Shown here: positions 5,689-25,122 of the stretch, piece after piece
Position numbering within the stretch: position 1 is the first letter of the stretch
Layout: each line of letters opens with the position of its first letter
IMG/VR virus record: IMGVR_UViG_3300028833_000001
Location: 127,171 to 191,170 of that record
Length of the DNA: 64,000 nt
From: a virus
Lineage: Duplodnaviria; Heunggongvirae; Uroviricota; Caudoviricetes
Reading direction: 5' to 3' (one strand)
Made by a program: the position numbers and the translations under genes
The notes under the pieces: model-generated
Databases searched by the model: none
What the model was told of the DNA's origin: nothing
The model's input: the letters and a program-made list of their open reading frames with translations, nothing else

Positions 5689-5705
5689 AGCAAATACCGT
5701 GCCAA
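5689..5705 (-). promoter_or_regulatory. sigma-54-type -24/-12 promoter motif
   Basis: Minus-strand TTGGCACGGTATTTGCT, 44 nt upstream of the sigma-factor ATG at 5645. Confidence 0.5.
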
Positions 5706-5799
5706 AATTTACATTACGCCATAAACCAAAAAAAAACGCTATTAATTTGTAATTAACAATATAATAGCGCTCTACGAAAAAATAAATTAAAATTTGTCA

Positions 5800-6285
5800 C
5801 TAAAAAATATGTTCATACGATATGTTGCTATCAACAAAGGTTATTTTATAGGTAGTTCTTTTCTTATTGTCATCTATGACAAGTAATGACAATTTGTCAG
5901 GTTCAATTTCTCTTACAAGTCTAAATTTCTTGTACTCTGCAAATATGTCAGTCAAGAACTGCCTCAATGTTTGGTTTGGCAGTGACCCTTTCTTTGATGT
6001 AATGGTCACCAAGTTGTCAGCCACGGTTGAATGTTTCAGTTTAACAAGAAACATACGATAAACGATTAGTTTCATATCTTTATTCCAATTCTTAAAATCT
6101 TTGGATTTATTGTCTTGCGGTTCTTTATCATTCTTTTCGCAAATAGTGATATAATCCTCATAGGGGAAATCATTTATCGTATCAACATATAATTCAATTT
6201 CATTTACCATATATGAATAAATTTTAATTTTATTATCAATTATAATATAACACATTTGTATAAAAAAAGAAAGGAGAATCCGCAT
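5800..6285 (-). CDS. hypothetical protein
   Basis: 161-aa ORF. Confidence 0.45.
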   Translation of the reverse strand: MRILLSFFIQMCYIIIDNKIKIYSYMVNEIELYVDTINDFPYEDYITICEKNDKEPQDNKSKDFKNWNKDMKLIVYRMFLVKLKHSTVADNLVTITSKKGSLPNQTLRQFLTDIFAEYKKFRLVREIEPDKLSLLVIDDNKKRTTYKITFVDSNISYEHIF

Positions 6286-6523
6286 TTTAATGCAAATTCT
6301 CCATACTCACAAACACACAATTAAAATTCTTGATTATGACAGGGAATCAAGTACCCTTGTAGCGTTTCGGGAGACAATTTTAATTTGAATGACTATTTTC
6401 GGTATAATAATTCTTAAAAAAAATTTGCTGTACGTCTCCCCAAAGTTTAAATTGTATAACCCTTAATCATCACTACTATAATACAAATTAAAATTGATAA
6501 AAACAAGTTTTTTTTGAAAAAAA

Positions 6524-6913
6524 TTAATTCAATAGAAATTTGTACACAACCTGCCCATACAAGGTTCGTTTTCGCAATACAGCGTAGCAGTTTTTGTCAT
6601 TATAGGTTGTAAGGCAGGCGGATTCTTTATTACCAAGCGGATTGCAACGGTATGTACATTTATCACCTTGTCGGTCAATCCGTGTAATCGGGAATGAATA
6701 GTCAATTAGACCATCAACTCCGTATGTGGAAAACTTCAACGAATCCCCGCAAACAAATGTGGTGTCAATCATAATCCACGCGTCTGAGAGGGCGTATTCC
6801 GTGTCTTCAACCACACACGACTTTTTAACGGGTACAAGCACATCCTGGGCATAAGTCGCGCCAATGATAGATGCGCAAATGAAAATCGCAATAATTGTAA
6901 TAAATTTCTTCAT
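6524..6913 (-). CDS. secreted Cys-rich protein with an N-terminal signal peptide
   Basis: Starts MKKFITIIAIFICASIIGATYAQ and has 8 Cys. Confidence 0.5.
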   Translation of the reverse strand: MKKFITIIAIFICASIIGATYAQDVLVPVKKSCVVEDTEYALSDAWIMIDTTFVCGDSLKFSTYGVDGLIDYSFPITRIDRQGDKCTYRCNPLGNKESACLTTYNDKNCYAVLRKRTLYGQVVYKFLLN

Positions 6914-7123
6914 ACAAATGATTTTATGTTAAACTTTAATTTAATATGTCAAAGAACTTTTTAATTGAGCAGCATAGCAGAGTCGAACTGCCGATTCAAC
7001 CTTGGAAGGGTTGCGTGTTACCACTACACTAATGCTGCTTGTACGCAAATGCGTACCCTACATTTCTGGTGCTTCCAGAGCCAAACCTTTTTAATTATAC
7101 TGATTTTTTTTCAAACAACCAAA

Positions 7124-7360
7124 TTAATATTCATCATCTGCAACCTCAGCGTTTGGTTGGTTGTATGTGTTCTGATTTTTCCAATGCTCTTTCCATAGAT
7201 GCTTCTTACAACCGTCGGAGATGAAGATTACGATGACAAGACTTATTCCGCATAGGATGGTGTACCAAACGGTGGTGAATACTGCGATAGCACCGATTGC
7301 GAGTGTCATAATCACGAATATTAGACCTATGCTTGCCCAAATTGCCTTTTTATTACTCAT
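7124..7360 (-). CDS. small membrane protein
   Basis: Two TM helices. The start was moved to the internal Met to avoid overlap with 7374..7637. Confidence 0.4.
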   Translation of the reverse strand: MSNKKAIWASIGLIFVIMTLAIGAIAVFTTVWYTILCGISLVIVIFISDGCKKHLWKEHWKNQNTYNQPNAEVADDEY

Positions 7361-7373
7361 AGTAACTATTGTT

Positions 7374-7637
7374 TTAATAATTGAAATTAGGATTGTTCTT
7401 GTTGTAGTCAAAGTTCCGCTTTGATGCCCATGCGAATTGGAAGACAGTCTTGATTACATCTTCGGTGGTCACGCGACCTTGTTCCTCTCTAAACCAACGT
7501 TTGTTGGTTTTCCATTGTTCAAGGAGGAAACCAATACCTTCATTCATTGCATTGTCTTCCTTCTTTACCTCTTCAAGCGTATTGATGAGGTTCACTGCGT
7601 CTTTGATTGTTTCGTTGTTGGGATTGATACTTTCCAT
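7374..7637 (-). CDS. hypothetical protein
   Basis: 87-aa ORF. Confidence 0.4.
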   Translation of the reverse strand: MESINPNNETIKDAVNLINTLEEVKKEDNAMNEGIGFLLEQWKTNKRWFREEQGRVTTEDVIKTVFQFAWASKRNFDYNKNNPNFNY

Positions 7638-7865
7638 TGTGTTTCTTTTTTATTTTTAACTATTTTTTATTTTTCACTTATACTGTATCCCGTCAATCCT
7701 TGTCTATCTCCAACCCACCCGATACTCCTTACTACGTGGTAATGTTTTTCAATATAACGCCAAGTATGACCATAGTATTGGCAGGCTTCCTTTTGGGTTT
7801 TGAAAATTTTAATACCCATAATTCTGTTTTTTTTATTATGGGTACGCGGTCGCGTACCCTTGTTA

Positions 7866-8096
7866 TTAATAACGTTTGCTGCGATGATACCAACGCTTAT
7901 GACCGAAGATTCGGTAGATGAGCATCACGATTGCCGCAACGATAATGAACACCAACACGCAGGTGGCAAATGCCGTCCATCCAAGTCCGATGGTTTCAAT
8001 TGCGGCTGCAAGGATAAACAGTTCTCCGATTTCAAAGACCACAAGAGTTGCGGTGATGATTAATGCGATAAAAATTGACGTGATAAATCTTTTCAT
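7866..8096 (-). CDS. small membrane protein
   Basis: 76 aa with two TM helices. The palindrome copy at 7840-7859 lies just downstream. Confidence 0.4.
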   Translation of the reverse strand: MKRFITSIFIALIITATLVVFEIGELFILAAAIETIGLGWTAFATCVLVFIIVAAIVMLIYRIFGHKRWYHRSKRY

Positions 8097-8121
8097 ATCT
8101 CTAAATTTTAATTGGCTTGAC

Positions 8122-8442
8122 TTATAAGTTAATTACAATTTGGTTGTCTTCCATAGGGATAGTGAACAACAAGTTATCACCATCATAGAAACCGTATCCA
8201 TCGATAAGGCTATTATATTGGTCGTTTTTAATAGCCTTCACTTTGATGCCGTTGCTGAACAACAGTTGCATAAATTCATCAGTGAATTGGCTGCAATCGG
8301 TCTTGATAGACATTTCATTTGATTCTCTGAATGCCACCACCTCATCCCCTCTATCATCAACCAAAATAAGGTCGTGAAAATCGCGTTCAAATTTGCAGTT
8401 GTTTGTTTTTATGAAATCCAAAAAAGCGTAAATAAAATACAT
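8122..8442 (-). CDS. hypothetical acidic protein
   Basis: 106-aa ORF. Confidence 0.45.
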   Translation of the reverse strand: MYFIYAFLDFIKTNNCKFERDFHDLILVDDRGDEVVAFRESNEMSIKTDCSQFTDEFMQLLFSNGIKVKAIKNDQYNSLIDGYGFYDGDNLLFTIPMEDNQIVINL

Positions 8443-8461
8443 AATCTTAAAATTTTATTGG

Positions 8462-8968
8462 TTATTTATTAAGTTCGTGAAAAATTGCCGACAGCATATC
8501 AATACTTAAATTAGCAATTGGCTCACTTGTGGTGTATTCAGTACCATCTTCGCCATAGTATCGTACTGACACGCAATATTGATAGTCCTGCCAATACACA
8601 CAATCGTAGTGGTTTCCGTATTCCGATATGGAAATGTCAATGCTATCCTCTCCAACTTTGCTTTTGAGTGCATCGTTGATGATGCTCACAATTGTGAACA
8701 TATTGGCTCTTATGTTGATGTGGGTATTGGCAAACAACGTTTCATACGTTACTCTGCACTCCCAACAATTTTCCAACACATCCTCATCAATTTCATCATA
8801 AGTTTCTTTGAACTCAACTCCGTTGATATAACGGATAACATATTCATCGGTGAATGAGCCGTTTTGGATTTCAAATACGTCACCATTCCATACATCAGCG
8901 GCAAATTGAACATCTCCGTTCTTCTCCACCTCATCGTGGATAACTTTGATTAATTCTTCTTTTGTCAT
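8462..8968 (-). CDS. hypothetical acidic protein
   Basis: 168-aa ORF. The motif at 9002-9018 lies 34 nt upstream. Confidence 0.5.
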   Translation of the reverse strand: MTKEELIKVIHDEVEKNGDVQFAADVWNGDVFEIQNGSFTDEYVIRYINGVEFKETYDEIDEDVLENCWECRVTYETLFANTHINIRANMFTIVSIINDALKSKVGEDSIDISISEYGNHYDCVYWQDYQYCVSVRYYGEDGTEYTTSEPIANLSIDMLSAIFHELNK

Positions 8969-9001
8969 AATTGAAAATCTTAATTTGTTGTTTGCTATAC
9001 C

Positions 9002-9018
9002 TGCAATTATCGTGCCAA
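9002..9018 (-). promoter_or_regulatory. sigma-54-type -24/-12 promoter motif
   Basis: TTGGCACGATAATTGCA, 34 nt upstream of the ATG at 8968. Confidence 0.5.
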
Positions 9019-9021
9019 AAA

Positions 9022-9720
9022 TTAAAACCTACACCATAAGAGACCTTGCACAATTCCATCTTCTGCACCGATGATATATTGAGGTTTATTGATTTTCATA
9101 AAAGAAGCCACAATGTTTTGATAGCGACAAAATTCCAAATCATTATCTCTCAAATCACTAACATCTTTGAGACCCAAGACATCAACATACAGATAACCTT
9201 TAACTTCAACGCAGGATGGATTCTCCAAAGTTTCAAGGTCAATTGGTTCACCGAATAGTTTGTCTATATCCAAAAGGTCGTTATAGGTTAAATCCATTTG
9301 TGATTTCAGTCCATTCTTGGTTGCAAATTTCACAATTTCTTTATAGTTATCAATATTCTCATTGAAATCATTGTAACGTGACGAAACAATTTCCCAAATG
9401 TCACACACATCGTCAAAAATCAATCTATAACTCGCCACTCTATCCTCATTTTCAACCTCAACATAAAATTCGTTATCATCTTTGAAGGTTTTGATTTGCT
9501 TTACTTCTTCACACATTGACGAGGCATATTCAACGTGATTACCGCCATCGTATGCGATATATAAACCATCGTCATACCGCTTGGTTGTGAGATTGATTGT
9601 ACCACCCATTTCTTTAATCATTGTGACAATATCTGAAACAATGTCACATCTCAATGCTAATGTTTTGGAATGATATTCCTCTAAACGAGACTTAATGTCT
9701 TTGTTATTGATTGCCGCCAT
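9022..9720 (-). CDS. hypothetical protein, paralog of 11557..11901 in its C-terminal domain
   Basis: LENPSCVEV...IIGAEDGIVQGLLWCRF compares with LENPTCITT...LIGAENGICKGIMYCVW. Confidence 0.5.
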   Translation of the reverse strand: MAAINNKDIKSRLEEYHSKTLALRCDIVSDIVTMIKEMGGTINLTTKRYDDGLYIAYDGGNHVEYASSMCEEVKQIKTFKDDNEFYVEVENEDRVASYRLIFDDVCDIWEIVSSRYNDFNENIDNYKEIVKFATKNGLKSQMDLTYNDLLDIDKLFGEPIDLETLENPSCVEVKGYLYVDVLGLKDVSDLRDNDLEFCRYQNIVASFMKINKPQYIIGAEDGIVQGLLWCRF

Positions 9721-9777
9721 AATTCTTAATTTTAATTTTATATAAAAATAAAAAGTGTTGTGTTATGTGACATTTTG

Positions 9778-10074
9778 TCAGTTACACCTTGCCAATCTAA
9801 TGACACTATCTTCATAGACGTCAATGATTTCCCAATCCTCATTGTTCATCGTGTCACGCAGAACTGTGTCGGTGGAGATTAGATAGAAGAATATCACTTC
9901 ATCAAAGGTATTGTCACCTGCCAATTTGTCATATTCTTCTTCCGTGCAATAACACATTGTGACACGTTCAGTCTTTCCGTTGTCCTTGAATTTGATTTCA
10001 CAATCAAATGTGAAAGGTGTTGTCGGGGAAGAGATAAGGACATCAGCTAATTTGGTTAAAATTTCTCTATTCAT
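9778..10074 (-). CDS. hypothetical acidic protein
   Basis: 98-aa ORF. Confidence 0.4.
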   Translation of the reverse strand: MNREILTKLADVLISSPTTPFTFDCEIKFKDNGKTERVTMCYCTEEEYDKLAGDNTFDEVIFFYLISTDTVLRDTMNNEDWEIIDVYEDSVIRLARCN

Positions 10075-10086
10075 TGTTTATGGGGT

Positions 10087-10626
10087 TTATTGGTGATTAA
10101 AATTGATGATTTCCTGCGTGTAATCTTCGGCAATTTTGGAAAGTTTGAAATAATCTTCCCACACGTCATCCTCAAAGCTTAACCCATTTACTACACAAGT
10201 TTTGCAGTATTGGGTATCAATGTATTTGACGTGAATGTACTCATCGTGTGTTTCAATTTTGATATTGATGGAATAGCCTTCATTATTGGCTTTATCAACG
10301 ATATTGGCAATTTCATCGCAATCATAAAAACATACATAGTCATTATCGCCAAACAATTCGATTGAGCGCATAAACTCGGTAAATTCTTCGCACGGCATAT
10401 CGCACAATTTTTGAAGAGCATCAACCTGCTCTTCGTTTTTCTGATTGGCAGGTTTTTCTTCACCAACATATTTGAATGACGCACTATAATACTCTCCAAC
10501 GCAGTTTATCTCATCAGCTAATCCATCATAAATAACGTCAAGCGACCCATTATCAATTAGACGTTCTGTATCCGCCAAAGCCTCAGTTACGCGATAATCT
10601 TCCGCTTGAATTTCAACTTTAATCAT
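10087..10626 (-). CDS. hypothetical acidic protein
   Basis: 179-aa ORF with the promoter motif upstream. Confidence 0.5.
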   Translation of the reverse strand: MIKVEIQAEDYRVTEALADTERLIDNGSLDVIYDGLADEINCVGEYYSASFKYVGEEKPANQKNEEQVDALQKLCDMPCEEFTEFMRSIELFGDNDYVCFYDCDEIANIVDKANNEGYSINIKIETHDEYIHVKYIDTQYCKTCVVNGLSFEDDVWEDYFKLSKIAEDYTQEIINFNHQ

Positions 10627-10671
10627 AATTCTAAATTTTAATTGTTACTATTAATTTGTCATTAATCTATA

Positions 10672-10688
10672 TGCAATTATCGTGCCAA
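10672..10688 (-). promoter_or_regulatory. sigma-54-type -24/-12 promoter motif
   Basis: TTGGCACGATAATTGCA, 46 nt upstream of the ATG at 10626. Confidence 0.5.
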
Positions 10689-10691
10689 ACC

Positions 10692-11462
10692 TCACTCTTC
10701 ATACGAAATCACACGAGGCAGTCCGTTCCTTGAAAGATTCTCATAAATTTGAGTTTCATCGGGATTTATATCCTCCGCAAGTGTCAACGCTTCTTCTTCT
10801 GTATGCGCCTCCACGACAAATTCTTCTGTTGTGGTATATTCAACTTTGATTGTGTATTTCTTTTTGGGGGTTTCCAACTCTTCGAAATACTCATTAACTT
10901 CTTCCCGCGACATTTCCGTAAACCACGGCTCAATCTCCTTGTAATTGGTAGGGATGGTATCGGAGACCTCAATCAAATCACCTTTCCACGTTCCAACCAT
11001 TTCCATAAGTGTACCATTGTAGTCTCCACCACCACAACCATTTCCATCAGCAGTAAGAATTGGAAGAGGATGAGCAATTCCGCCCCAACCTTTCATATCG
11101 GGAATTGTCTGCTTTTTGAGGTCAAACCATTCCTTTTTGTCGTGATTGATATAGATGGTATTGTCATCAAGCGCGCGCTTCACAATAGAGATTTCGATTT
11201 CATCTAATGGGTCAACTTTTTCCGCCTTATAGGTCAAATCATAGTAATTATCATTACCGATAACGGCATCGCCATAATCACCTGCCCAAACAAGTCTTTT
11301 AGGGCATTCAATCATTTTGTAGGTAACATTCATCACGAACTTATTACCAATATACGAATGCTCCATTAATTTAGAACCATTATTTGTGTCCCAAGAATCA
11401 AAATATTCTTTTACATTGTCTTTTTTTTCTGTGATGAAACACGCTTTATAATATTGTCCCAT
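10692..11462 (-). CDS. hypothetical protein
   Basis: 256-aa ORF with the promoter motif upstream. Confidence 0.5.
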   Translation of the reverse strand: MGQYYKACFITEKKDNVKEYFDSWDTNNGSKLMEHSYIGNKFVMNVTYKMIECPKRLVWAGDYGDAVIGNDNYYDLTYKAEKVDPLDEIEISIVKRALDDNTIYINHDKKEWFDLKKQTIPDMKGWGGIAHPLPILTADGNGCGGGDYNGTLMEMVGTWKGDLIEVSDTIPTNYKEIEPWFTEMSREEVNEYFEELETPKKKYTIKVEYTTTEEFVVEAHTEEEALTLAEDINPDETQIYENLSRNGLPRVISYEE

Positions 11463-11538
11463 AATTTTAATTTAATTTGTTAATACTAATTTTAATTGTT
11501 TTTAATGAAAGTTGGGTACGCAAACGCGTACCCTATAT

Positions 11539-11555
11539 ACGCAATAATCGTGCCA
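11539..11555 (-). promoter_or_regulatory. sigma-54-type promoter motif followed by the palindromic hairpin
   Basis: TTGGCACGATTATTGCG, with the palindrome GGGTACGCGTTTGCGTACCC immediately downstream (11513-11532). Lies 77 nt upstream of the ATG at 11462. Confidence 0.45.
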
Positions 11556-11556
11556 A

Positions 11557-11901
11557 TTATGCTGACCAAACGCAATACATAATTCCTTTGCAGATTCCGT
11601 TTTCAGCACCAATTAGAAAATCGGGATGGGAAATAGCACCAAGACCAAGAACAATGTCAGAGTATTCGTAACGCTCATCGTAGGTCAATGGAGAGACATA
11701 TTGCGGCAACTCAACAATAATGTATTGGTCTGTTGTGATGCAGGTTGGGTTTTCAAGTGTGTAGCAATCTATGGCTTCGTAACCAATGTCAAATATGAAA
11801 TCAACTTCTTTCCATTCGGAAGATGTTTCGGTTTTGAGATTATTTTTTTCGCAGAAGGCAATGATTTTGTCTTTTACTTCTTGGAATTTTTCACTTGTCA
11901 T
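11557..11901 (-). CDS. hypothetical protein, paralog of the 9022..9720 C-terminal domain
   Basis: Shared C-terminal motif. The start was set to an internal Met to avoid overlap with 11921..12280. Confidence 0.4.
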   Translation of the reverse strand: MTSEKFQEVKDKIIAFCEKNNLKTETSSEWKEVDFIFDIGYEAIDCYTLENPTCITTDQYIIVELPQYVSPLTYDERYEYSDIVLGLGAISHPDFLIGAENGICKGIMYCVWSA

Positions 11902-11920
11902 ATTGTCTATGGATTTAAGG

Positions 11921-12280: not shown

Positions 12281-12321
12281 TTCAATAAATTTTAATCGGT
12301 GAATAAATACGTTGTGCTATA

Positions 12322-12338
12322 TGCAAAAAGTGTGCCAA
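12322..12338 (-). promoter_or_regulatory. sigma-54-type -24/-12 promoter motif
   Basis: TTGGCACACTTTTTGCA, preceded by the upstream GTTGTGCTATA element. Confidence 0.5.
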
Positions 12339-12751: not shown

Positions 12752-12768
12752 TACAAATACCGTGCCAA
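12752..12768 (-). promoter_or_regulatory. sigma-54-type -24/-12 promoter motif
   Basis: TTGGCACGGTATTTGTA, 50 nt upstream of the ATG at 12702. Confidence 0.45.
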
Positions 12769-12844
12769 ACTTATTATATATGGTTTTTATTGATATGACA
12801 TAATGGCACGACAAAATGGCAGACTGACATTTTGGCATATAAAA

Positions 12845-13040
12845 AAATAAAGGGTGTGACGGAGTATACTCTCCTACTCATTTTAAGTGTGACGGAGTAT
12901 ACTCTCCTATCCATTTTACACACATTTAATCCAATGTTCAGCCCTTTTCGGAGCGACCCGCTCCTTACTGCCCCTATGTCCTATGCTATTATGGCGGTTT
13001 CATTGCTGATGATTTAAGTTAGACAATCAGTTTACAATTC
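12845..13040 (-). ncRNA. candidate small non-coding RNA downstream of a perfect-consensus promoter; contains a 2 x 33-bp tandem repeat and a GGAGCG..CGCTCC hairpin, and ends in a T7 run
   Basis: There is no minus-strand ORF of 60 aa or more between the promoter at 13047-13063 and the next promoter at 12752. The repeats GTGTGACGGAGTATACTCTCCTA(C/T)(T/C)CATTTTA lie at 12854-12886 and 12887-12918. Confidence 0.35.
12854..12918. repeat. 33-bp direct tandem repeat, 2 copies, each with an internal GGAG..CTCC hairpin
   Basis: Seen directly in the sequence. Confidence 0.8.
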
Positions 13041-13046: not shown

Positions 13047-13063
13047 TGCAAAAAGCGTGCCAA
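13047..13063 (-). promoter_or_regulatory. sigma-54-type promoter motif (perfect consensus) with no protein gene downstream
   Basis: TTGGCACGCTTTTTGCA, part of a ~65-bp cassette repeated at 13955-14030 and 18940-19015. Confidence 0.5.
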
Positions 13064-13969: not shown

Positions 13970-13986
13970 TACAAAAAGCGTGCCAA
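13970..13986 (-). promoter_or_regulatory. sigma-54-type -24/-12 promoter motif
   Basis: TTGGCACGCTTTTTGTA, 47 nt upstream of the ATG at 13923. Confidence 0.5.
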
Positions 13987-14932: not shown

Positions 14933-14949
14933 TGCAAATAATGTGCCAA
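14933..14949 (-). promoter_or_regulatory. sigma-54-type -24/-12 promoter motif
   Basis: TTGGCACATTATTTGCA, 48 nt upstream of the ATG at 14885. Confidence 0.5.
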
Positions 14950-14952: not shown

Positions 14953-15531
14953 TTAATTCAACCGTGCGACAAGTTTTCCACAATACATCATCACATCACC
15001 ATAGTGGATTTTTTCATCATCGGGCAAGCCACGATACTCTCTGATAGCATCTACCATAGCCTCATCTTTGACAACCTCAGCCATTTTCGGATAAGTCAAA
15101 ATAATAGTGGATGGGTCTGTTTTTTCAAGTGCGTAAGCAAGAGCAGCACCATCGGCACACTCAACAGTATATTCGTGTTCTTCATCATCACCGAAAAAAT
15201 CATTATCGCAGAACATCACACTGTCTTCGCGGACAACACCACTTGCACATTGGTCTGACACAATGTCAGAATTGTCATCATCTGCCAAATTGTCATCATC
15301 ATAGGTTTCCTCAATAAAGTCGGCTGTTGCTTCTCCAAACTGAAATTCTCCGTTAGGGATTTCAACATATTCGGGAAATTCCGATAATGTTTCACAATTC
15401 AGTGCTTCATCTGCCTTGCACAAAGCGTCATACTCACTATCAGCCTTGACGTTCATATACCCATTATAAACGCAGGAGAGGCTTACACGATAGGTCTTTT
15501 GGCTCTTCTTGGTTTCGTTCTTTTTTGCCAT
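14953..15531 (-). CDS. hypothetical acidic protein
   Basis: 192-aa ORF. Confidence 0.5.
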   Translation of the reverse strand: MAKKNETKKSQKTYRVSLSCVYNGYMNVKADSEYDALCKADEALNCETLSEFPEYVEIPNGEFQFGEATADFIEETYDDDNLADDDNSDIVSDQCASGVVREDSVMFCDNDFFGDDEEHEYTVECADGAALAYALEKTDPSTIILTYPKMAEVVKDEAMVDAIREYRGLPDDEKIHYGDVMMYCGKLVARLN

Positions 15532-15564: not shown

Positions 15565-15581
15565 TGCAAATACTATGCCAA
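15565..15581 (-). promoter_or_regulatory. sigma-54-type promoter motif (GC to AT variant at -24: TGGCAT)
   Basis: TTGGCATAGTATTTGCA, 34 nt upstream of the ATG at 15531. Confidence 0.4.
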
Positions 15582-17261: not shown

Positions 17262-17278
17262 ATACAAAAACTATGCCA
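17262..17278 (-). promoter_or_regulatory. sigma-54-type promoter motif (TGGCAT variant)
   Basis: TTGGCATAGTTTTTGTA, ~29 nt upstream of the ATG at 17233. Confidence 0.4.
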
Positions 17279-17555
17279 AAAGTTCCCTCAATGCCGAAAT
17301 AGTTTCATTGAATACTGATATTTTCTCTTCGTCAGTCATTCGGCAAAATGTCTTACCGAATTTGTATTTTGGATTATTATCCATTTGTTCAAGGCAAAGG
17401 TAATAAATAAATGGCGGATATTCACGCTCATTCTTACTCTTCAAAACCTCATCAAGCTCATTCTCCGCCAATGATATTGCCTTGTTGAAACAATCCTCGT
17501 CATTATCCAAATGATAGTTACGGACTAAATGAAATAAACTATTTTCGTTTACCAT
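17271..17555 (-). CDS. hypothetical protein
   Basis: 94-aa ORF. Confidence 0.4.
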   Translation of the reverse strand: MVNENSLFHLVRNYHLDNDEDCFNKAISLAENELDEVLKSKNEREYPPFIYYLCLEQMDNNPKYKFGKTFCRMTDEEKISVFNETISALRELLA

Positions 17556-18478: not shown

Positions 18479-18496
18479 ATCATTTGTGTTTTTGGT

Positions 18497-18922
18497 TTAC
18501 AAATATTGCAGGATGGTGATGATTGCCTCACGCTTTTGGTCCTCATCATAAATCAAAATCTCCTCCGCATCCTTATCTGTGTATGGATTTCCGCTCCAAA
18601 AATAGATGTCAGCTCCGTTAGTAGTAACATTGGTAATTGTCGCTCCGTTGCATTTGATACCAAAATCTTCAACTGACAAATTGTCAGTATCAAACTCATC
18701 GAATTGGTCTCTCAATTCACATTCCAAGTTGAAAAGGCTTCGTTCATCGTCCCAAATTTCCATCAAGTCATCTCTTGTCTCCGCATCCTCAACGGAGCAG
18801 AGTTCAACAAAATCAAATTCAGCAGGGATGTTCATCATCTCAAATTTGCTTTTTATTTCAGCAATGGAGTCACCACTAAATTTCTTTGCCACTCTAAAAG
18901 TTACGATTGCTTGTTTTTCCAT
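18497..18922 (-). CDS. hypothetical acidic protein
   Basis: 141-aa ORF with the promoter motif 35 nt upstream. Confidence 0.5.
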   Translation of the reverse strand: MEKQAIVTFRVAKKFSGDSIAEIKSKFEMMNIPAEFDFVELCSVEDAETRDDLMEIWDDERSLFNLECELRDQFDEFDTDNLSVEDFGIKCNGATITNVTTNGADIYFWSGNPYTDKDAEEILIYDEDQKREAIITILQYL

Positions 18923-18956
18923 ACCATAAATTTTAATTGGTTAGACGCACCATATA

Positions 18957-18973
18957 TACAAAAAGCGTGCCAA
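18957..18973 (-). promoter_or_regulatory. sigma-54-type -24/-12 promoter motif within a repeated cassette
   Basis: TTGGCACGCTTTTTGTA. The flanking AATTGGTTAGACGC and CACGCTGACAACAATTAAAATTAAGATT are shared with other copies. Confidence 0.5.
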
Positions 18974-19013
18974 ACTTATAAAGCAGGCACGCTGACAACA
19001 ATTAAAATTAAGA

Positions 19014-19418
19014 TTATGATAAATTGATAGTATCTAAATCAATATTACAAATGTAGTCAAAATCTTCAAACCAATCCGATTTATGGTTGTAAACGGTCGG
19101 GTGCGTGTATGGTTTCATATCATCATTTAAGTAACAATATTGATAATAGTAACATTTGCCGTCTCTTGATGGTTTGGAATCAAGTATTGCTATATAATAT
19201 TGGTAATTTCGTAATGGTTCAAATGGATTGTTCGTATCACTAATATTGAAGCATCCATAAACTCCACCAATCTTCAATTGGTCTTTGTTATCATTTTTTT
19301 TCTTCTTGTCATTTATGTTTTCAACAATACATTCAATTGATTTGAATATGAAGAAAGAGAAAACAAGAACGACAAAATTGTAAATGATAAACGATAGTAA
19401 TGTAGTAAACGTAATCAT
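19014..19418 (-). CDS. membrane-anchored protein, tandem paralog of 19430..19852
   Basis: N-terminal TM helix, then IGGVYG...YYIAILDSKPSRDGKCYYYQY...DIDLDTINLS. Confidence 0.5.
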   Translation of the reverse strand: MITFTTLLSFIIYNFVVLVFSFFIFKSIECIVENINDKKKKNDNKDQLKIGGVYGCFNISDTNNPFEPLRNYQYYIAILDSKPSRDGKCYYYQYCYLNDDMKPYTHPTVYNHKSDWFEDFDYICNIDLDTINLS

Positions 19419-19429
19419 AAGTTTTTTGA

Positions 19430-19852
19430 TTATGAAACTTTTATGCTATTCAAGTCAATATCCTTTACATATTCCCAATTATCAAAATAATTTGTTTGAT
19501 TACTATAAATCATAGTGTCACTATAACTGCTATATGGTGACATATTGTCATTTAGAAAGACATATTGGCAGTATTCACAATGTCCATCCCTTGATGGTTT
19601 TATGTCAAGGATTGCCACATAATAACCATAGTCGTGAATAGGGGAAAATGGGTCATTATTATCACCATAAAATCGTCTTTTTCCATATATTCCACCAATA
19701 TTCAATGATGACTTGACTTTTTTCTCTTTTTGTATCTTCTTATTGCTCCTAATATTATCAATGATGTGGCGGAAAAATTTGAAAAATGTGATTGAAAACA
19801 CACTAATGAAGATTGTGAATGAAATAAATGATGGTATATTAAAGGTAATCAT
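19430..19852 (-). CDS. membrane-anchored protein, tandem paralog of 19014..19418
   Basis: IGGIYG...YYVAILDIKPSRDGHCEYCQY...DIDLNSIKVS. The start was set to the internal Met to avoid overlap. Confidence 0.5.
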   Translation of the reverse strand: MITFNIPSFISFTIFISVFSITFFKFFRHIIDNIRSNKKIQKEKKVKSSLNIGGIYGKRRFYGDNNDPFSPIHDYGYYVAILDIKPSRDGHCEYCQYVFLNDNMSPYSSYSDTMIYSNQTNYFDNWEYVKDIDLNSIKVS

Positions 19853-19863
19853 AATTTTAATTT

Positions 19864-20760
19864 TTATTCTTGAACGTAAATCTTTCTTATTCTTCCCTCC
19901 CACACATCAAGACGATAGGAATCCACAAAACTTACTTGGTATACGTCATCGGAACACCGATATGTGACGTTTTCGCCAACGTATTGACTATTGAATGCCT
20001 CAACGGCTTCTTCATATTTTTTCTTCATCGCAGCGGCAGCGGAAGCGTGAGACTTATAAACAGTTGTATCCTCTTCAAGACCAAATCTACTGCCATCCTC
20101 CCAAACCGATGTTGCGACATAGACATAATCTAAATTGAATACCACTTTACGTTGTTCCCTATTGATTTCACCCTTAACATCCTCAATGGCATCTTCTTCA
20201 CCATTGATTACAGCAAGAATTAATGACAATCCACGATTGTCCTTCAAATAATCGGCAACGATTTGGAAATATTTGTTTTGGAAATCATTGTCATAACCGC
20301 TAACAATTTTTGCTGCGGCACGTTTTGCAAACCTTTCCCTCAATTCGGTATCAACGAAATGCTCAATTTCTTCATCATAGAACGGCAAATCATTTTCGGT
20401 GTAACATAATAGTTCATACATAATCAGTTCACGATGCTCTTCGCAAGCACCCGAAAACATCATCACCTTATCAATGATTCTCTCCACTTGCATTTGGTAG
20501 GTGTCCATTGATGTTTGTTTGATTTCATACTCAACCCTATTACCATCGGAAATGGTGGCATAATCATTACCTTTCCAAACATCATACCCGTTGAAAACGA
20601 AATGCTCGCCTTTGCTTGCAAGTATATCTTTTTTAATTTTAATTTCACTTGCAACTTCTGCGAACATAACTTCTTGTGCTTGCGTAAAAGTTGGGAATGA
20701 CCAAACAAGCGTATCGTTATGCAGTTGAGTTCTGATGACATTAAAAATTTTAATCTTCAT
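19864..20760 (-). CDS. hypothetical protein
   Basis: 298-aa ORF with the promoter motif 52 nt upstream. Confidence 0.55.
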   Translation of the reverse strand: MKIKIFNVIRTQLHNDTLVWSFPTFTQAQEVMFAEVASEIKIKKDILASKGEHFVFNGYDVWKGNDYATISDGNRVEYEIKQTSMDTYQMQVERIIDKVMMFSGACEEHRELIMYELLCYTENDLPFYDEEIEHFVDTELRERFAKRAAAKIVSGYDNDFQNKYFQIVADYLKDNRGLSLILAVINGEEDAIEDVKGEINREQRKVVFNLDYVYVATSVWEDGSRFGLEEDTTVYKSHASAAAAMKKKYEEAVEAFNSQYVGENVTYRCSDDVYQVSFVDSYRLDVWEGRIRKIYVQE

Positions 20761-20811
20761 AATCTTATATTTTTAATTGTTGATGATTTGAATTACTTGT
20801 GTTGTGCTATA

Positions 20812-20828
20812 TGCAATTATTGTGCCAA
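20812..20828 (-). promoter_or_regulatory. sigma-54-type -24/-12 promoter motif
   Basis: TTGGCACAATAATTGCA with the upstream GTTGTGCTATA element. Confidence 0.5.
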
Positions 20829-20829
20829 A

Positions 20830-21057
20830 TTAAAAATAGTAACTCACCTCATCCTCATTAAAAGATGTTCCGTTTTCGTTGTTGTAGTCTTCAATTGCAA
20901 GTGATGGGATGTAGGATTCACCTGCAAGTTCAAACTTGCCATTCTTAATGAGTTCCTCCAAAACTGAATTGTCATCGGCAGATAACAATTTTTTGATTGT
21001 ATCTTCATCTGCCTTTATGTCAACACCTACTCTCATCCAAATTTTTTGTTCTTGCAT
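20830..21057 (-). CDS. hypothetical acidic protein
   Basis: 75-aa ORF. Confidence 0.4.
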   Translation of the reverse strand: MQEQKIWMRVGVDIKADEDTIKKLLSADDNSVLEELIKNGKFELAGESYIPSLAIEDYNNENGTSFNEDEVSYYF

Positions 21058-21104
21058 AATACTGAATTTTAATTGTGAATATTAATTTTAAGTGTTGTGC
21101 TATA

Positions 21105-21121
21105 TGCAATTATTGTGCCAA
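21105..21121 (-). promoter_or_regulatory. sigma-54-type -24/-12 promoter motif
   Basis: TTGGCACAATAATTGCA, 48 nt upstream of the ATG at 21057. Confidence 0.5.
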
Positions 21122-21271
21122 CTTACCTGCGCCTCCAATATAATTTTCCGATGAGGTGTTTTCTATTTGATGGCTCAATGATAAACCATTTCCACCATTC
21201 AAGTCTTCCGATATTGATATACTCCCCTACAATCAGTTGAGGGCGGCTCGCCATAGCGATTATGTCATCCA

Positions 21272-21481
21272 TTATTCGTTACCACCATTAAGTTCAAGGT
21301 AAATGTCAGTACACATATCGTCAAAATTGGTTGTGCCGTCATTATAATCATCAAGGACTTCAATGATGGTTTCGTAGTCGCTATCAGCGTCAAGGTTGTC
21401 GGAAATGAGGTTGTTAATTCTAACAATGTCATCTTCACCCAATTCAAGGGCGAATGAATAATCTCTAATAATTTCTTCCAT
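21272..21481 (-). CDS. small hyper-acidic protein
   Basis: 69 aa, extremely D/E-rich. Confidence 0.4.
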   Translation of the reverse strand: MEEIIRDYSFALELGEDDIVRINNLISDNLDADSDYETIIEVLDDYNDGTTNFDDMCTDIYLELNGGNE

Positions 21482-21494
21482 AATGTTATTAATT

Positions 21495-21728
21495 TTAATT
21501 AAACAAATTCATAAATCTACTTTCAAAATCTCTTAAAGTATCTTCGGCAAAATCATCCCACCAATCTTCGCGCTGGCAAGCGCGCAAATATGTAATATTT
21601 GCAACAATATTATTATACTCTTCACAAAACCGTTTTTTCTCCACATTTCGTTTTAAGTTAATGGTTGCCAATGTAATGAAGAAAATTACAATCAATGATA
21701 AGATGATGATTAAAATTATAATTGTCAT
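21495..21728 (-). CDS. small membrane protein
   Basis: N-terminal TM helix. Confidence 0.4.
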   Translation of the reverse strand: MTIIILIIILSLIVIFFITLATINLKRNVEKKRFCEEYNNIVANITYLRACQREDWWDDFAEDTLRDFESRFMNLFN

Positions 21729-21763
21729 ATTCTTATTCTTTTTGCGATATTACAAATATTAAA

Positions 21764-22012
21764 TTAATTTTCAAAATATAAAAAATTCTCAATGCCATCA
21801 ATATCCTCGCAAGAACCGAGAAATTCGTCATTCTCATATACGTTGTACCCACCAACGATGTCGGGTTCAATTGTATAATCATCCTCCCAATAATACGGCT
21901 CTACCGATAGAGTTCTATCGTCAACTTCAAAATAGACGTTGAAGCATTCGCCAACTTTCGGTTGGTATTCGTTGAGGTTTTCGGAATTGATGGTTACGAT
22001 GTTCTTACTCAT
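21764..22012 (-). CDS. small acidic protein
   Basis: 82-aa ORF with the promoter motif 38 nt upstream. Confidence 0.45.
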   Translation of the reverse strand: MSKNIVTINSENLNEYQPKVGECFNVYFEVDDRTLSVEPYYWEDDYTIEPDIVGGYNVYENDEFLGSCEDIDGIENFLYFEN

Positions 22013-22049
22013 AGTGATAAAATTTTAATTGGTTAGACGCTATCATATA

Positions 22050-22066
22050 TGCAAAAAGCGTGCCAA
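22050..22066 (-). promoter_or_regulatory. sigma-54-type -24/-12 promoter motif (perfect consensus)
   Basis: TTGGCACGCTTTTTGCA. Confidence 0.5.
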
Positions 22067-22112
22067 ACCGTTTGACACGCTTAACTGACACATTGGCATT
22101 TGATTTGTGACA

Positions 22113-22379
22113 TTATGGCATAAATGCCATAGAAATCGCTTCTTTTAACTTGTTTTGGTAGTCATCTTCGTTATCGGTGTCATATTCAAACCAACCGACA
22201 ATTTCACCATCAAAATATAGTGTTGCAGCATCTCCGTCATATTCTACTTCAACCAATCCACAGTCGGTTGTTGATAGGTCTTCAAGCGCGTCCTGCTTCT
22301 CTCCATAGACAATAATTGTGTTGTCATCAAAGCAAAGAGGCGTTTTATCTTCTTTAATGATAATGTAATCAATAACCAT
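22113..22379 (-). CDS. small acidic protein
   Basis: Start set at the internal Met (MVIDYIII...) preceded by CAATTAAAATTA. Confidence 0.4.
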   Translation of the reverse strand: MVIDYIIIKEDKTPLCFDDNTIIVYGEKQDALEDLSTTDCGLVEVEYDGDAATLYFDGEIVGWFEYDTDNEDDYQNKLKEAISMAFMP

Positions 22380-22383
22380 AATT

Positions 22384-23169
22384 TTAATTGTTTTTTGAAT
22401 ATTCTTTAATCGCTCCCTCAATCGCTTCTTTCACCTCTTCATAGGTGCAACGTACAGAAGCGTCAAACGTGTACTCCATAGCGTATTTTCCTGCGATTTG
22501 AGAGATTTTTTCATCCTCATTGGTATTGTCGGTCAATGAGGACTTAAACACCGCCAAATACTCCGTTTTTTTCTTTTCAGTAAAATCATCAATAAAATCG
22601 TAATAGTCAGTAAAGTCATCATCATCTCTTTCTTCCCACAACTTTTCCGCCTGCAATGCCCAATCTTGGATTTTACCGACAATAACATCTCTCGGAATGT
22701 CGGTTGTTGATGATATTTCCTCAAAACATTGCAGGGCAATCTCAATGCAGTTCTCCTGCACACGCAGGTTACGATAATGTGCGTCCAAATCAATCGGATT
22801 TTTGACGGGAGGAATAATGGCATCACGAACGGACTTACAAGCCTCCATATCTCCACGCATAGTGGCATAGAGCAAGTCAATCCAACTGACATTATGCAAG
22901 TCCATAAGGTTTCTTGCTTTCTCACCATCCATAAAATTGTTAAAGTCATCAATAGTTACGTTGCAATTGTCAGCACCGATTTGACGGAATGTACCCATCA
23001 AATCTTCAAAAACGAAGAGTTCTATTGACTTTTCGTATAATTCAGAATCGGAATAGTGTTCAAGTGCTTGAATCACCACTTCTTTGGTTATAGTGGTTTT
23101 AGCGTTCGGGTATCTATCTTTGAGATAGGAAATGATGACTTCTGCCATTGAATTTTTAATTTCACTCAT
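22384..23169 (-). CDS. hypothetical protein
   Basis: The first ATG at 23196 is only 10 nt from the promoter motif, so the second Met (MSEIKN...) is the likelier start. Confidence 0.5.
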   Translation of the reverse strand: MSEIKNSMAEVIISYLKDRYPNAKTTITKEVVIQALEHYSDSELYEKSIELFVFEDLMGTFRQIGADNCNVTIDDFNNFMDGEKARNLMDLHNVSWIDLLYATMRGDMEACKSVRDAIIPPVKNPIDLDAHYRNLRVQENCIEIALQCFEEISSTTDIPRDVIVGKIQDWALQAEKLWEERDDDDFTDYYDFIDDFTEKKKTEYLAVFKSSLTDNTNEDEKISQIAGKYAMEYTFDASVRCTYEEVKEAIEGAIKEYSKNN

Positions 23170-23205
23170 AATCACTAAATTTAATTGGTTAGGCATTATC
23201 CATTA

Positions 23206-23222
23206 TGCAAAAAGCGTGCCAA
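23206..23222 (-). promoter_or_regulatory. sigma-54-type -24/-12 promoter motif (perfect consensus)
   Basis: TTGGCACGCTTTTTGCA. Confidence 0.5.
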
Positions 23223-23301
23223 AAATACAAATTGTCATATAAAAAAAACCCACCATTTAGGTGGGTTACATTCATATCACACAAAACCACTCAGAGGTCT
23301 A

Positions 23302-23817
23302 TTACTTGTTGATGGTATTGACAATACCACGGATAAGACTGACAACGTTGTCACGCAAATCTGCCACGCTGTCAGTATGTAACATTTCGGCAGCCTCCAA
23401 TTCAGCTTCGCGATTATCCAATTCAGCTCCACGAGCATTCAGTTCCTCTTCACGCTCATCAAGGTCAATCTCTCGTTCGTCCAATTCAGCATCTCTAACG
23501 TTGAGGTCGTGTTCCCTACCATCAAGTTCATCTTCTCTTGCGTCAAGTTCCTCCTTGCGCTCATCATAGTTGTGACAACAAGTGTTCTCACAAACTTCAT
23601 CATCGCACTCGTCACCATCAACGGAAAGAATGTCCTTCGCCAACTTGATGTAGCGTTCAATCGAAGTGTTGTCGGTAGCAGGTGCAGATTTCGGCATAAT
23701 CGCCTTGATGACGATAGCGTCAAGCATTGAATCAAGCATCATAATGTCCGTGATGGACATATTAGCAATAGCATTCATAATTCCGTTAATAACCATCTTC
23801 TTAATGTTGTTCTTCAT
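23302..23817 (-). CDS. coiled-coil protein with tandem heptad repeats (ELDxREx) x ~7
   Basis: LDAREDELDGREHDLNVRDAELDEREIDLDEREEELNARGAELDNREAELEAAE. Confidence 0.5.
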   Translation of the reverse strand: MKNNIKKMVINGIMNAIANMSITDIMMLDSMLDAIVIKAIMPKSAPATDNTSIERYIKLAKDILSVDGDECDDEVCENTCCHNYDERKEELDAREDELDGREHDLNVRDAELDEREIDLDEREEELNARGAELDNREAELEAAEMLHTDSVADLRDNVVSLIRGIVNTINK

Positions 23818-23867
23818 ACTTTTGAAATTTTAATGTTTATAAAAAATTGTTATTGGATTTTGTTCTA

Positions 23868-23884
23868 TGCAACTATCGTGCCAA
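23868..23884 (-). promoter_or_regulatory. sigma-54-type promoter motif adjacent to the palindromic hairpin (23888-23907)
   Basis: TTGGCACGATAGTTGCA, 51 nt upstream of the ATG at 23817. Confidence 0.5.
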
Positions 23885-23915
23885 AATGGGTACGCAAATG
23901 CGTACCCTATATTTT

Positions 23916-24602
23916 TTAATATCCGTAGTTGTAAATCATATTGGAGTAATTGAAATTGACAAAGTTAATAGTATCGTCATATTCCAACTTCTCAATGAAA
24001 TCCTGCGGCTCAACTCCCTCATTGATGAAAGTGTTGATTTGCTCGCAGAAATGGATATTCTGCTCATCAACCTCTTCGGTTGTATGTGCACCAAATGAGA
24101 GGCATCTTGCCTCCGATGGATTGCTGACAAACATATAGGTAAAGAAACCACGTAGCTTGTAGCGTGTAGCGAACTCGGAGGCATAGCACCATATACCAAT
24201 AATCTCTCTATAACGCAGTAAATCCACGTTGTCGGCATCAATGATATATGGAGACATCCTGCTATAACCAACCGCAATGTCAGCGTCGAGACAATATTGA
24301 CCGCTCATATCCATACAATCACCATAAATGGCATCGTAATAGGTATCATAGTCCATAATATCGTCCAAGTCGGAATATTGATTGTTAATAACCTCAATGT
24401 CATCATCGGCACGGAAAAGACCGCTGCCAGTTCCGTGACCAAGAAATAGACACGTTTCATAGGGTCTATTGCGTAAGACCTCTTCCAATTCAGACCTCTT
24501 TGGGTTGACCAATACAATGTTGTCGGGATTGGCTGACAAATTGTCAAAGAGACGTGACATAATGTCGGTGTCGTGTTGTGTGTTAATGTGTACAGCTATC
24601 AT
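23916..24602 (-). CDS. hypothetical protein
   Basis: 228-aa ORF. Confidence 0.5.
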   Translation of the reverse strand: MIAVHINTQHDTDIMSRLFDNLSANPDNIVLVNPKRSELEEVLRNRPYETCLFLGHGTGSGLFRADDDIEVINNQYSDLDDIMDYDTYYDAIYGDCMDMSGQYCLDADIAVGYSRMSPYIIDADNVDLLRYREIIGIWCYASEFATRYKLRGFFTYMFVSNPSEARCLSFGAHTTEEVDEQNIHFCEQINTFINEGVEPQDFIEKLEYDDTINFVNFNYSNMIYNYGY

Positions 24603-24667
24603 AACTCTATCTAATGATTTTTAATATTATTATACAAACTTTTTTCTTGTCTGCCAAATATACCTTA

Positions 24668-24684
24668 TTCAAATATAGTGCCAA
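24668..24684 (-). promoter_or_regulatory. degenerate sigma-54-type motif (TGGCACT-N4-TTGAA) adjacent to the palindromic hairpin (24690-24708)
   Basis: Minus-strand TTGGCACTATATTTGAA, 66 nt upstream of the ATG at 24602. Confidence 0.3.
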
Positions 24685-24714
24685 ACTTTGGGTACGCAAG
24701 TGCGTACCTAAAAA

Positions 24715-25071
24715 TTAAAGATATTGTTCAATGCTTTCGCAAAGGCAATAAAGAGTTGGAGAGACACAGCACATACCGCCGAATATGGAATACCAACCAT
24801 CATCGTTTAGTACCTCATCATCGGTCATACCATCCAAACTTTCGTTAGAAGAAGCAGGCAGCACACACACTTCACCATCAAATAAAGCAACCGCAAGCAC
24901 TTTGTTTTCGGTGGTTGTCTCCAACGCTTCATCAAAGATGTAGCAGTAGATAGTGTCTTTGTACCAATCTTCATCGGTACGGATAAGCCCGTTGTGTTGT
25001 CTTAAAACGTCCGCCACAGCGTCATTCATACGCTTGTTGAGGGCAATTTGCTCATTAAGTAAATCAGTCAT
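24715..25071 (-). CDS. hypothetical acidic protein
   Basis: 118-aa ORF. Confidence 0.5.
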   Translation of the reverse strand: MTDLLNEQIALNKRMNDAVADVLRQHNGLIRTDEDWYKDTIYCYIFDEALETTTENKVLAVALFDGEVCVLPASSNESLDGMTDDEVLNDDGWYSIFGGMCCVSPTLYCLCESIEQYL

Positions 25072-25105
25072 AACTTTGAAATTTTGTTGAACACTAAATT
25101 GTCAA

Positions 25106-25122
25106 TACAATAATCGTGCCAA
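25106..25122 (-). promoter_or_regulatory. sigma-54-type -24/-12 promoter motif, the first (most upstream) of the array
   Basis: TTGGCACGATTATTGTA, 35 nt upstream of the ATG at 25071. Confidence 0.45.

Follow-up and report, generated by a model that had tools for sequence, protein, structure and literature searches.

The window analysed here is a stretch of 64,000 nucleotides from a tailed phage (Caudoviricetes; positions 127,171 to 191,170 of the IMG/VR virus record IMGVR_UViG_3300028833_000001). Its minus strand carries, within 19.5 kb (5689-25122), an array of 19 short sites of the type TTGGCACG-N4-TTGCA, which have the form of sigma-54 (-24/-12) promoters and appear to head short transcription units of small phage genes. 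The same promoter type and a palindrome that is found in the array (TGACA-N3-TGTCA) also occur at heat-shock genes of Bacteroidota, the phylum to which the host probably belongs, and it is therefore plausible that sigma-54 and an activator are both provided by the host. On the basis of these sequence comparisons, the array is probably transcribed by the host sigma-54 RNA polymerase together with the host heat-shock regulator. The original prediction had offered two options, an activator that is unseen or unconventional, or convergence of an RNA polymerase or sigma factor of the phage on this sequence; given the shared promoter and palindrome, the host heat-shock regulator fits better than either.

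Distribution and sequence of the promoter-like sites

In the 64 kb, 16 sites matching TTGGCACGNNNNTTGCA with no more than one mismatch were found, all on the minus strand, where 0.06 would be expected from dinucleotide-preserving shuffles. A looser pattern, TGGCAC-N5-TTGY, returned the identical 16 sites, and a position weight matrix (PWM) built from them added three weaker-scoring ones (15565, 17263 and 24668). In the PWM scan of the whole window, no site could be detected on the plus strand, and the only match outside 5689-25122 was a single weak one at 3796. Thus, the predicted 19-site minus-strand array was recovered, 16 sites by pattern and three by PWM, and the motif, rather than occurring equally often in coding DNA of both strands, is restricted to gaps and to one strand.

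The GG-to-GC spacing is constant at all 19 sites, as expected of the exact 10-nt RpoN element that had been proposed, and the 13 specified positions match the extended sigma-54 consensus, including secondary ones such as the T before GG, the G after TGGCAC, the TT before GC and the A after it. The -12 doublet is GC at 13 sites, GT at five and GA at one. All sites had been described as exact or one-mismatch copies of TTGGCACG-N4-TTGCA, which is correct for 16 of them; 15565 has two mismatches, 17263 three and 24668 two (its -12 element reads TTGAA). Seventeen of the coordinates first given were accurate, and two were off by one (11540, not 11539; 17263, not 17262).

All of the sites lie in short gaps between the open reading frames (ORFs) of minus-strand genes, often 2-4 nt past the upstream stop codon, and are co-oriented with the genes downstream, which is the placement in non-coding DNA expected of sigma-54 promoters. 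Counted from the 3' end of the motif, 18 of the 19 are located 28-77 nt ahead of an ATG, a range previously put at 29-78 nt; the remaining site, 13047, had also been assigned an ATG and has no credible ORF downstream. Approximately 12 nt past the GC, a weakly conserved (A/T)AGT(A/G) or GCAC is present in several array families, which fits a sigma-54 transcription start and is not evidence for one. Several sites have hairpin terminators immediately upstream. A repeated hairpin, GGGTACGC-N4-GCGTACCC, is found at 7840-7859, 11514-11533, 23888-23907 and ~24691-24708, mostly just upstream of a promoter, and also in three other loci (L053, L006 and L152); it is probably a family-wide terminator or insulator.

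Readings of the motif as a sigma-70, ECF, sigma-32 or Bacteroidota sigma-A promoter were rejected on the basis of spacing or key bases. TTGGCA and TATA are separated by only 11 nt, no conserved hexamer is present 16-18 nt downstream, and the final T of a -10 hexamer is missing; a generic sigma-70 scan gave 121 matches against 87 expected and did not single out the array sites. Bacteroidota sigma-A promoters reportedly consist of TAnnTTTG at -7 and TTTG at -33, approximately 19-21 nt upstream; at no array site is the TA followed by TTTG. Both misfits, to sigma-70 spacing and to the Bacteroidota pattern, had been anticipated from the sequence.

A palindrome shared with host heat-shock genes

The palindrome TGACA-N3-TGTCA has eight copies in the window (0.06 expected), all of which are in the array and none in the other 44 kb. 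One further variant with an N4 spacer is also located in the array, and most copies are flanked by extra half-sites. The gaps between palindrome and promoter are 42 and 58 nt for promoter 25106, and 21, 42-43 and 58-59 nt in related phages. Both elements are carried by a 115,947 bp relative (L359) and by three other phages (L369, L312 and L284).

To our knowledge, Bacteroidota have no sigma-32. Metagenomes were scanned for a composite pattern comprising the palindrome, 20-50 nt and TGGCAC-N5-TTGC, which generated at least 120 loci (L280-L399) from Bacteroidota-like contigs and a few phages, and one representative of each downstream-ORF cluster was confirmed by Pfam. Among the matches listed, the first downstream ORF encodes Hsp20 in at least 22 cases, DnaK in at least 17, GroES in at least seven, Lon in at least five, ClpB and GrpE in at least three each, and HtpG and thioredoxin in others. 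The gaps in these listed matches peak at 21-24, 30-35 and 40-44 nt, a pattern of helical phasing, and an activator gene is nearby in only one of the 120 matches listed. In a comparative study, the genes for GroEL, GroES, IbpA, GrpE, DnaJ, DnaK and the Clp and Lon proteases were reported to be enriched for sigma-54 promoters in Bacteroidota, and B. thetaiotaomicron was stated to depend on sigma-54 for its grpE and groES (PMC12316311, 2025).

The extended 18-base motif, TTGGCACG-N4-TTGCATATAG, was found as solitary sites in many sigma-54-bearing bacteria. As a positive control, a PspF-like activator gene was detected in 40 of 120 extended-motif loci of 8 kb, and rpoN itself in three. Loci from rumen Prevotellaceae and Fibrobacter carry the exact extended motif before hsp20 and before a gene with a Clp_N domain, and at the Prevotellaceae hsp20 promoter the palindrome, TGACATTATGTCA, starts 47 nt upstream of the TGGCAC box, with a gap of 34 nt. 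No activator gene lies beside hsp20 in L178. Two motif loci from rumen Bacteroidales (L195 and L233) encode GAFTGA-type activators, and the host could therefore supply such a protein.

The phage sites share with the heat-shock promoters of Bacteroidota the core (T)TGGCACG-N4-TTGC(A), the identical spacing and the palindrome, and with the hsp20 and Clp_N-gene promoters of rumen Prevotellaceae even the extended TTGCATATAG. A core with an in-phase palindrome 21-44 nt upstream is present at promoter 25106 and at promoters of related phages; the other promoters of the window either lack the palindrome or have it at 118 nt or more. On the other hand, the bacterial sites are solitary and drive chaperones, whereas the phage has 19 copies in 19.5 kb on one strand, which precede small unassigned genes, one candidate non-coding RNA and a sigma factor. 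No chaperone or protease gene is located downstream, the array genes having no Pfam family except for the sigma factor. Thus, the phage copies the cis-elements of the regulon and is functionally outside it.

A possible course of transcription

In the course proposed here, the phage would bring neither a sigma-54 nor an activator of its own and would instead copy the heat-shock promoter and palindrome of its host. Host RNA polymerase with host sigma-54 would form closed complexes at the 19 sites. Sigma-54 cannot open DNA without an ATPase activator, a role that would fall to the host heat-shock regulator. The simplest candidate for this regulator is a AAA+ ATPase of the enhancer-binding kind, with affinity for the clusters of palindromes that are scattered through the array; it would be expected to be active during growth, and more so when infection causes proteotoxic stress. 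As is known from phages of E. coli, infection further induces chaperone genes, which growing cells already express at a high level, and promoters of this kind would therefore be usable immediately after DNA entry. Expression of the array would follow soon after entry, and it is from their layout that its genes are presumed to be early ones.

The last unit of the array would produce a phage sigma-70-family factor, which would probably direct the polymerase away to promoters of a second class, CTATTTAT. In the window, (A)CTATTTAT(T) has 13 copies against 6.4 expected and none in the array, and at eight copies of CTATTTAT the start codon of a structural or other gene follows after 20-45 nt, in the strand-appropriate orientation. 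The phage sigma factor may act on promoters of this class.

Conservation and points of doubt

Seven close relatives with 70-93% DNA identity (L045, L065, L017, L023, L025, L033 and L055) retain the sites, with differences in the N4 spacer and in the flanking sequence. In L153, whose sigma factor is 44% identical, 14 sites occur on one strand beside the sigma gene, and one of them is 129 nt upstream of that gene, which matches the arrangement at 5689. One-strand arrays of the motif were also identified on other large viral contigs, namely L053/L044 (217 kb), L006 (222 kb), L034 (303 kb) and L029 (98 kb). It is quite possible, although we hold this broader proposal only tentatively, that a clade of ~360 kb Bacteroidota jumbo phages and several other large-phage lineages have moved their first wave of transcription to sigma-54 by copying the heat-shock promoter and its enhancer palindrome, with infection stress or constitutively high chaperone expression switching on the ~19 units.

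Several observations weigh against transcription by host sigma-54 and a heat-shock regulator. The assignment of the sites to sigma-54 is itself drawn from their sequence, and with ~85 kb of the ~360 kb genome examined, a divergent phage activator could be encoded elsewhere in it. Promoter 25106 is the only one with a palindrome at a host-like distance; the other palindromes are 118-1400 nt away from a promoter, and some are in ORFs. Four array families (L153/L034, L053/L044, L006 and L029) have no palindrome, which is therefore not a general requirement, and the protein that binds the element could be a repressor, or an activator able to act from solution as well. Moreover, L152 (contig TONG22-1 scaffold_219, 400-10000; sigma factor 46% identical) has a different array promoter, TTTTTGAAACATTTT-N10-CCGTATAATATAGTAG, which also precedes its sigma gene. 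The promoter type of the array is therefore evolutionarily labile. A further relative, L155 (sigma factor 40% identical), has neither promoter type, and conservation and swaps taken together indicate that the array promoter type is old, widespread and replaceable.

Two more of these observations concern the bases after the core. A TA-rich or TATAAT-like tract follows TTGC by 1-2 nt in all array phage families, which may simply ease DNA melting. The unrelated L029 (IMGVR_UViG_3300025605_000004, 98 kb, from a Shine-Dalgarno-using host) has 15 minus-strand array sites that read TTGACA-T-TGGCAC-N5-TTGC-AC-TATAAT, in which the sigma-54 core is conserved and its N5 variable, and the core lies between the two hexamers of a perfect TTGACA/TATAAT promoter with a spacer of 18 nt; these may be dual promoters. 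Tract and arrangement together leave room for a sigma-70-type recognition role.

Six other IMG/VR contigs of ~45-53 kb (L132, L137, L139, L144, L146 and L147) have a canonical GAFTGA-type activator gene in their interior and 2-5 same-strand sigma-54-type sites, one of which comes directly after the activator gene. Possibly, these are phages that bring their own activator of sigma-54.

Alternative explanations

An unlikely, though credible, alternative retains host sigma-54 and assigns the activation to the phage, whose activator would be unconventional or encoded in the ~275 kb of genome outside the part that was read; it could be an AAA+ protein of divergent sequence, a protein that enters the cell along with the DNA, or a factor that lifts the autoinhibition of sigma-54. 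The size of that remaining part favours it, and an activator working from solution would explain more easily why most array promoters and the four other families have no host-like palindrome. However, the palindrome that is restricted to the array and shared with the host would stay unexplained, and no GAFTGA-type activator was found in the window, its flanks or related loci. A six-frame scan of the window for GAFTGA-like and RpoN-box peptides was empty, in agreement with what had been noted of the window before, and tblastn searches with PspF and RpoN gave no match in the window, its flanks and the related phage loci, which together amount to ~680 kb. Scans of the whole of IMG/VR identified 88 activator genes and three sigma-54 genes, mostly at contig ends that represent host flanks, and none of them is on an array-bearing contig. 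The window does encode two AAA+ proteins, both of which were examined as activators and rejected. The 849 aa protein has a Sigma54_activat match in Pfam (E = 9e-12) that reflects a generic AAA+ domain, NCBIfam assigning it to ClpB/ClpA, and the 374 aa protein, of the classical clade, resembles proteasomal Rpt subunits rather than sigma-54 activators.

It is improbable, by our estimate, that TGGCAC-N5-TTGC is instead the site of a phage or host DNA-binding protein, with the downstream TATA-like box being read by a sigma-70-family factor, although T4 middle promoters with their MotA box offer an analogy. TTGC is followed by TA(TA) at 17 of the 19 window sites, TATAAT-like hexamers occur 1-2 nt past it in related as well as unrelated phages, L029 has its core in the spacer of a perfect sigma-70 promoter, and L152 has TATAATATAGTAG with a different upstream half. 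All of these would suit such a composite promoter, but the 13 specified positions reproduce the exact sigma-54 consensus with its secondary positions, and host heat-shock genes bear the same core and palindrome. The window sites also have no T at the last position of the hexamer and no -35 element at 16-18 nt, and the distance from TTGC to TATA can differ by 1-2 nt among the sites of a single phage.

Least of all can it be expected that the array is read by the 292 aa sigma factor of the phage, or by a phage RNA polymerase as yet unseen, after convergence on the sequence. Three lineages show synteny of the sigma gene and the array, and in L152 the two share a non-sigma-54 promoter that is possibly specific to the phage sigma factor, but the 10-11 nt from TTGGCAC to TATA cannot be spanned by sigma-70-type regions 4 and 2, the sigma gene is itself behind a sigma-54-type site so that another factor must start its expression, no RNA polymerase gene is present in the window or flanks, and convergence on 13 positions plus the host palindrome is improbable.

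The phage, its array genes and other features of the window

At 99.5% identity, the window corresponds to part of a metagenome contig of 360,704 bp (ERZ27257202:k141_2937494, ~128.8-192.8 kb), and genes for a T4-type major capsid protein (Gp23) and a prohead protease are located immediately to its right; it is part of an uncultured jumbo phage of ~360 kb, of which ~85 kb was examined (the window and flanks of 5 and 10 kb). A rumen origin is suggested by the sample names (STEW19, TONG22 and RUG) and by the sample numbers in IMG. Start codons in the window are not preceded by a Shine-Dalgarno sequence and have a conserved A/T-rich leader, AACAATTAAAATTTAnnATTATG, also at operon-internal genes, and the few window proteins with phage homologues resemble those of Prevotella Lak, Maribacter and Flavobacterium phages. 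These features indicate a Bacteroidota host, probably one of the rumen. The leader stands ahead of most minus-strand genes between 7.8 and 25 kb (such as at 10627-10660), and similar ones of the type AACCAATAAAA are present in L053, L153 and L034. Bacteroidota ribosomes may use it as a phage-specific signal for starting translation.

A megablast search of the array against GenBank phages gave no match. The sigma factor encoded by its last gene matches SigA and RpoS structures in the PDB (E ~1e-20) and has 74 homologues in a large protein database, several of them on contigs of 350-384 kb. A single-protein search of IMG/VR revealed no close relative, and tblastn against GenBank phages gave only matches below 30% identity, and therefore no cultured relative to work with.

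Behind promoter 13047 lies a candidate structured non-coding RNA, in which two GGAGAGTRTACTCC hairpins are combined with an outer AAAGGG...CCCUUU stem and, after this stem, a U-run. Related phages have 2-3 copies each, and 6 of the 31 predicted pairs show compensatory changes in an alignment of only 6 sequences. An Rfam search of the window detected tRNA only, with no family matching the candidate. A tRNA-Gly (TCC) gene in the distal array (6967-7038, minus) is without a sigma-54-type site of its own.

Upstream of the array, 640 nt of non-coding DNA (25130-25770) contain a G8/C8 run, a G-rich stretch and three repeats of ~61 nt (25332-25392, 25406-25466 and 25706-25766) that read ...GGAATTTTTTTTGAAAAAGGAGTACCTATTGAAATTAAATT on the minus strand; the region is loosely similar to the TTTTTGAAA part of the L152 array promoter. 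Elsewhere in the window, a plus-strand gene (43098-44369) encodes a 423 aa TnpB/IS605-family OrfB protein with OrfB_IS605 and Cas12f1-like TNB domains, for which no close relative was found in GTDB genomes. The 849 aa ClpB/ClpA-like protein has two AAA+ rings (51813-54362, minus), and the distant relative L155 encodes a full DnaJ (5085-6116). Phage-borne chaperones thus co-occur with heat-shock-type promoters.

Table 1. Coordinates of promoter-like sites, palindromes and associated features in the window.
Feature	Position	Strand	Context
Promoter 1, most upstream, TTGGCACGATTATTGTA	25106..25122	-	34 nt before ATG 25071; palindromes 42 and 58 nt upstream
Weak site TTGGCACTATATTTGAA, -12 = GA	24668..24684	-	65 nt before ATG 24602; hairpin GGTACGCACTTGCGTACC at ~24691-24708 upstream
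Promoter TTGGCACGATAGTTGCA	23868..23884	-	50 nt before ATG 23817; hairpin GGGTACGC-N4-GCGTACCC directly upstream
Promoter TTGGCACGCTTTTTGCA	23206..23222	-	36 nt before leader-associated ATG 23169; hairpin and T-run 23247-23267 upstream
Promoter TTGGCACGCTTTTTGCA	22050..22066	-	37 nt before ATG 22012
Promoter TTGGCACAATAATTGCA	21105..21121	-	47 nt before ATG 21057
Promoter TTGGCACAATAATTGCA	20812..20828	-	51 nt before ATG 20760
Promoter TTGGCACGCTTTTTGTA	18957..18973	-	34 nt before ATG 18922
Weak site TTGGCATAGTTTTTGTA	17263..17279	-	28 nt before ATG 17234
Site TTGGCATAGTATTTGCA	15565..15581	-	33 nt before ATG 15531
Promoter TTGGCACATTATTTGCA	14933..14949	-	47 nt before ATG 14885
Promoter TTGGCACGCTTTTTGTA	13970..13986	-	46 nt before ATG 13923
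Promoter TTGGCACGCTTTTTGCA	13047..13063	-	no ORF downstream; precedes candidate non-coding RNA
Promoter TTGGCACGGTATTTGTA	12752..12768	-	49 nt before ATG 12702
Promoter TTGGCACACTTTTTGCA	12322..12338	-	41 nt before ATG 12280
Promoter TTGGCACGATTATTGCG	11540..11556	-	77 nt before ATG 11462; hairpin 11514-11533 within leader
Promoter TTGGCACGATAATTGCA	10672..10688	-	45 nt before ATG 10626
Promoter TTGGCACGATAATTGCA	9002..9018	-	33 nt before ATG 8968
Last promoter TTGGCACGGTATTTGCT	5689..5705	-	43 nt before ATG of phage sigma-factor gene
Two palindromes TGACA-N3-TGTCA with extra half-sites	25164-25176, 25180-25192		upstream of promoter 1
Palindrome TGACAAATTGTCA	24534..24546		in array
N4 palindrome variant TGACAACGTTGTCA with flanking half-sites	23340..23353		~118 nt upstream of promoter 23206
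Palindrome TGACATATTGTCA	19538..19550		in array
Palindrome TGACAAATTGTCA	18674..18686		in array
Palindrome TGACACAATGTCA with three more half-sites	15256..15268		~307 nt upstream of promoter 14933
Palindrome TGACATTTTGTCA	9768..9780		gap upstream of gene 9022-9720
Palindrome TGACAATTTGTCA with two more half-sites	5887..5899		~182 nt upstream of sigma-gene promoter
Candidate structured non-coding RNA, ~200 nt	12828..13036	-	behind promoter 13047
Sigma-70-family factor, 292 aa, regions 2 and 4	4767..5645	-	last array gene; Pfam Sigma70_r2, Sigma70_r4; NCBIfam
Second-class sites CTATTTAT	32513, 33602, 41084, 44783, 49547, 55191, 57339	+	before start codons
Second-class site CTATTTAT	51755	-	before start codon

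Comparison with known systems

The use of sigma-54 by a phage has a precedent in Pseudomonas phage YuA, which, as described in a later account, depends on both host sigma-54 and host sigma-70 and has a sigma-54-like promoter region identified by promoter trap and start mapping (Ceyssens et al. 2008, cited in bioRxiv 10.1101/2023.10.13.562163). As far as that account goes, YuA resembles the present phage in having a sigma-54-like promoter, and differs in that it is a 58 kb siphovirus with a proteobacterial host, in which this single promoter stands beside others of sigma-70-like or phage-specific type. In the ~360 kb phage of Bacteroidota described here, the 19 units of the array have no recognisable promoters other than sigma-54-type sites, and these are accompanied by a host enhancer-like element. 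Thus, the original view that no phage early-gene array with sigma-54-type promoters had been described still stands for arrays, and has to be qualified for the single promoter of YuA. No report of a sigma-54 promoter array or of a host sigma-54 enhancer-type element in a phage was found in the literature searched, which left out most subscription journals. A 'sigma-54-like' protein of Pectobacterium phage Q19 is an assignment at the level of HHpred.

In its layout, the array resembles those of T4, T5 and other large lytic phages, in which a one-strand block of small genes has strong, consensus host-type promoters for every one or few genes and a later phage factor redirects transcription. Those arrays use the housekeeping sigma factor, whereas the sites described here would use the enhancer-dependent sigma-54. 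In the textbook picture, phages seize the housekeeping sigma factor or bring a polymerase of their own, and sigma-54 is a tightly gated route to few host operons. If the present reading is true, it would represent a different takeover strategy, in which phage expression is coupled to the stress state of the host, and the phage would be the first demonstrated case of a virus that takes over an enhancer-dependent regulon of bacteria in its entirety. The cis-elements through which Bacteroidota control heat shock would also have been identified: the signature of TGACA-N3-TGTCA and TGGCAC-N5-TTGC supports a sigma-54 heat-shock response in this phylum and points to a specific regulator-binding site. 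Moreover, the short, portable promoters could serve as expression parts in Bacteroides and Prevotella, and the motif pair could help to assign uncultured phages to Bacteroidota hosts.

The psp and ibpB genes of E. coli provide another comparison, as they have sigma-54 promoters that respond to phage-induced or heat stress. The pspA promoter reads TGGCACGCAAATTGTAT, which is similar to the phage sites. However, psp and ibpB are defence and repair genes of the host that are induced by phage proteins, whereas in the present phage a promoter of this type stands before the phage's own genes.

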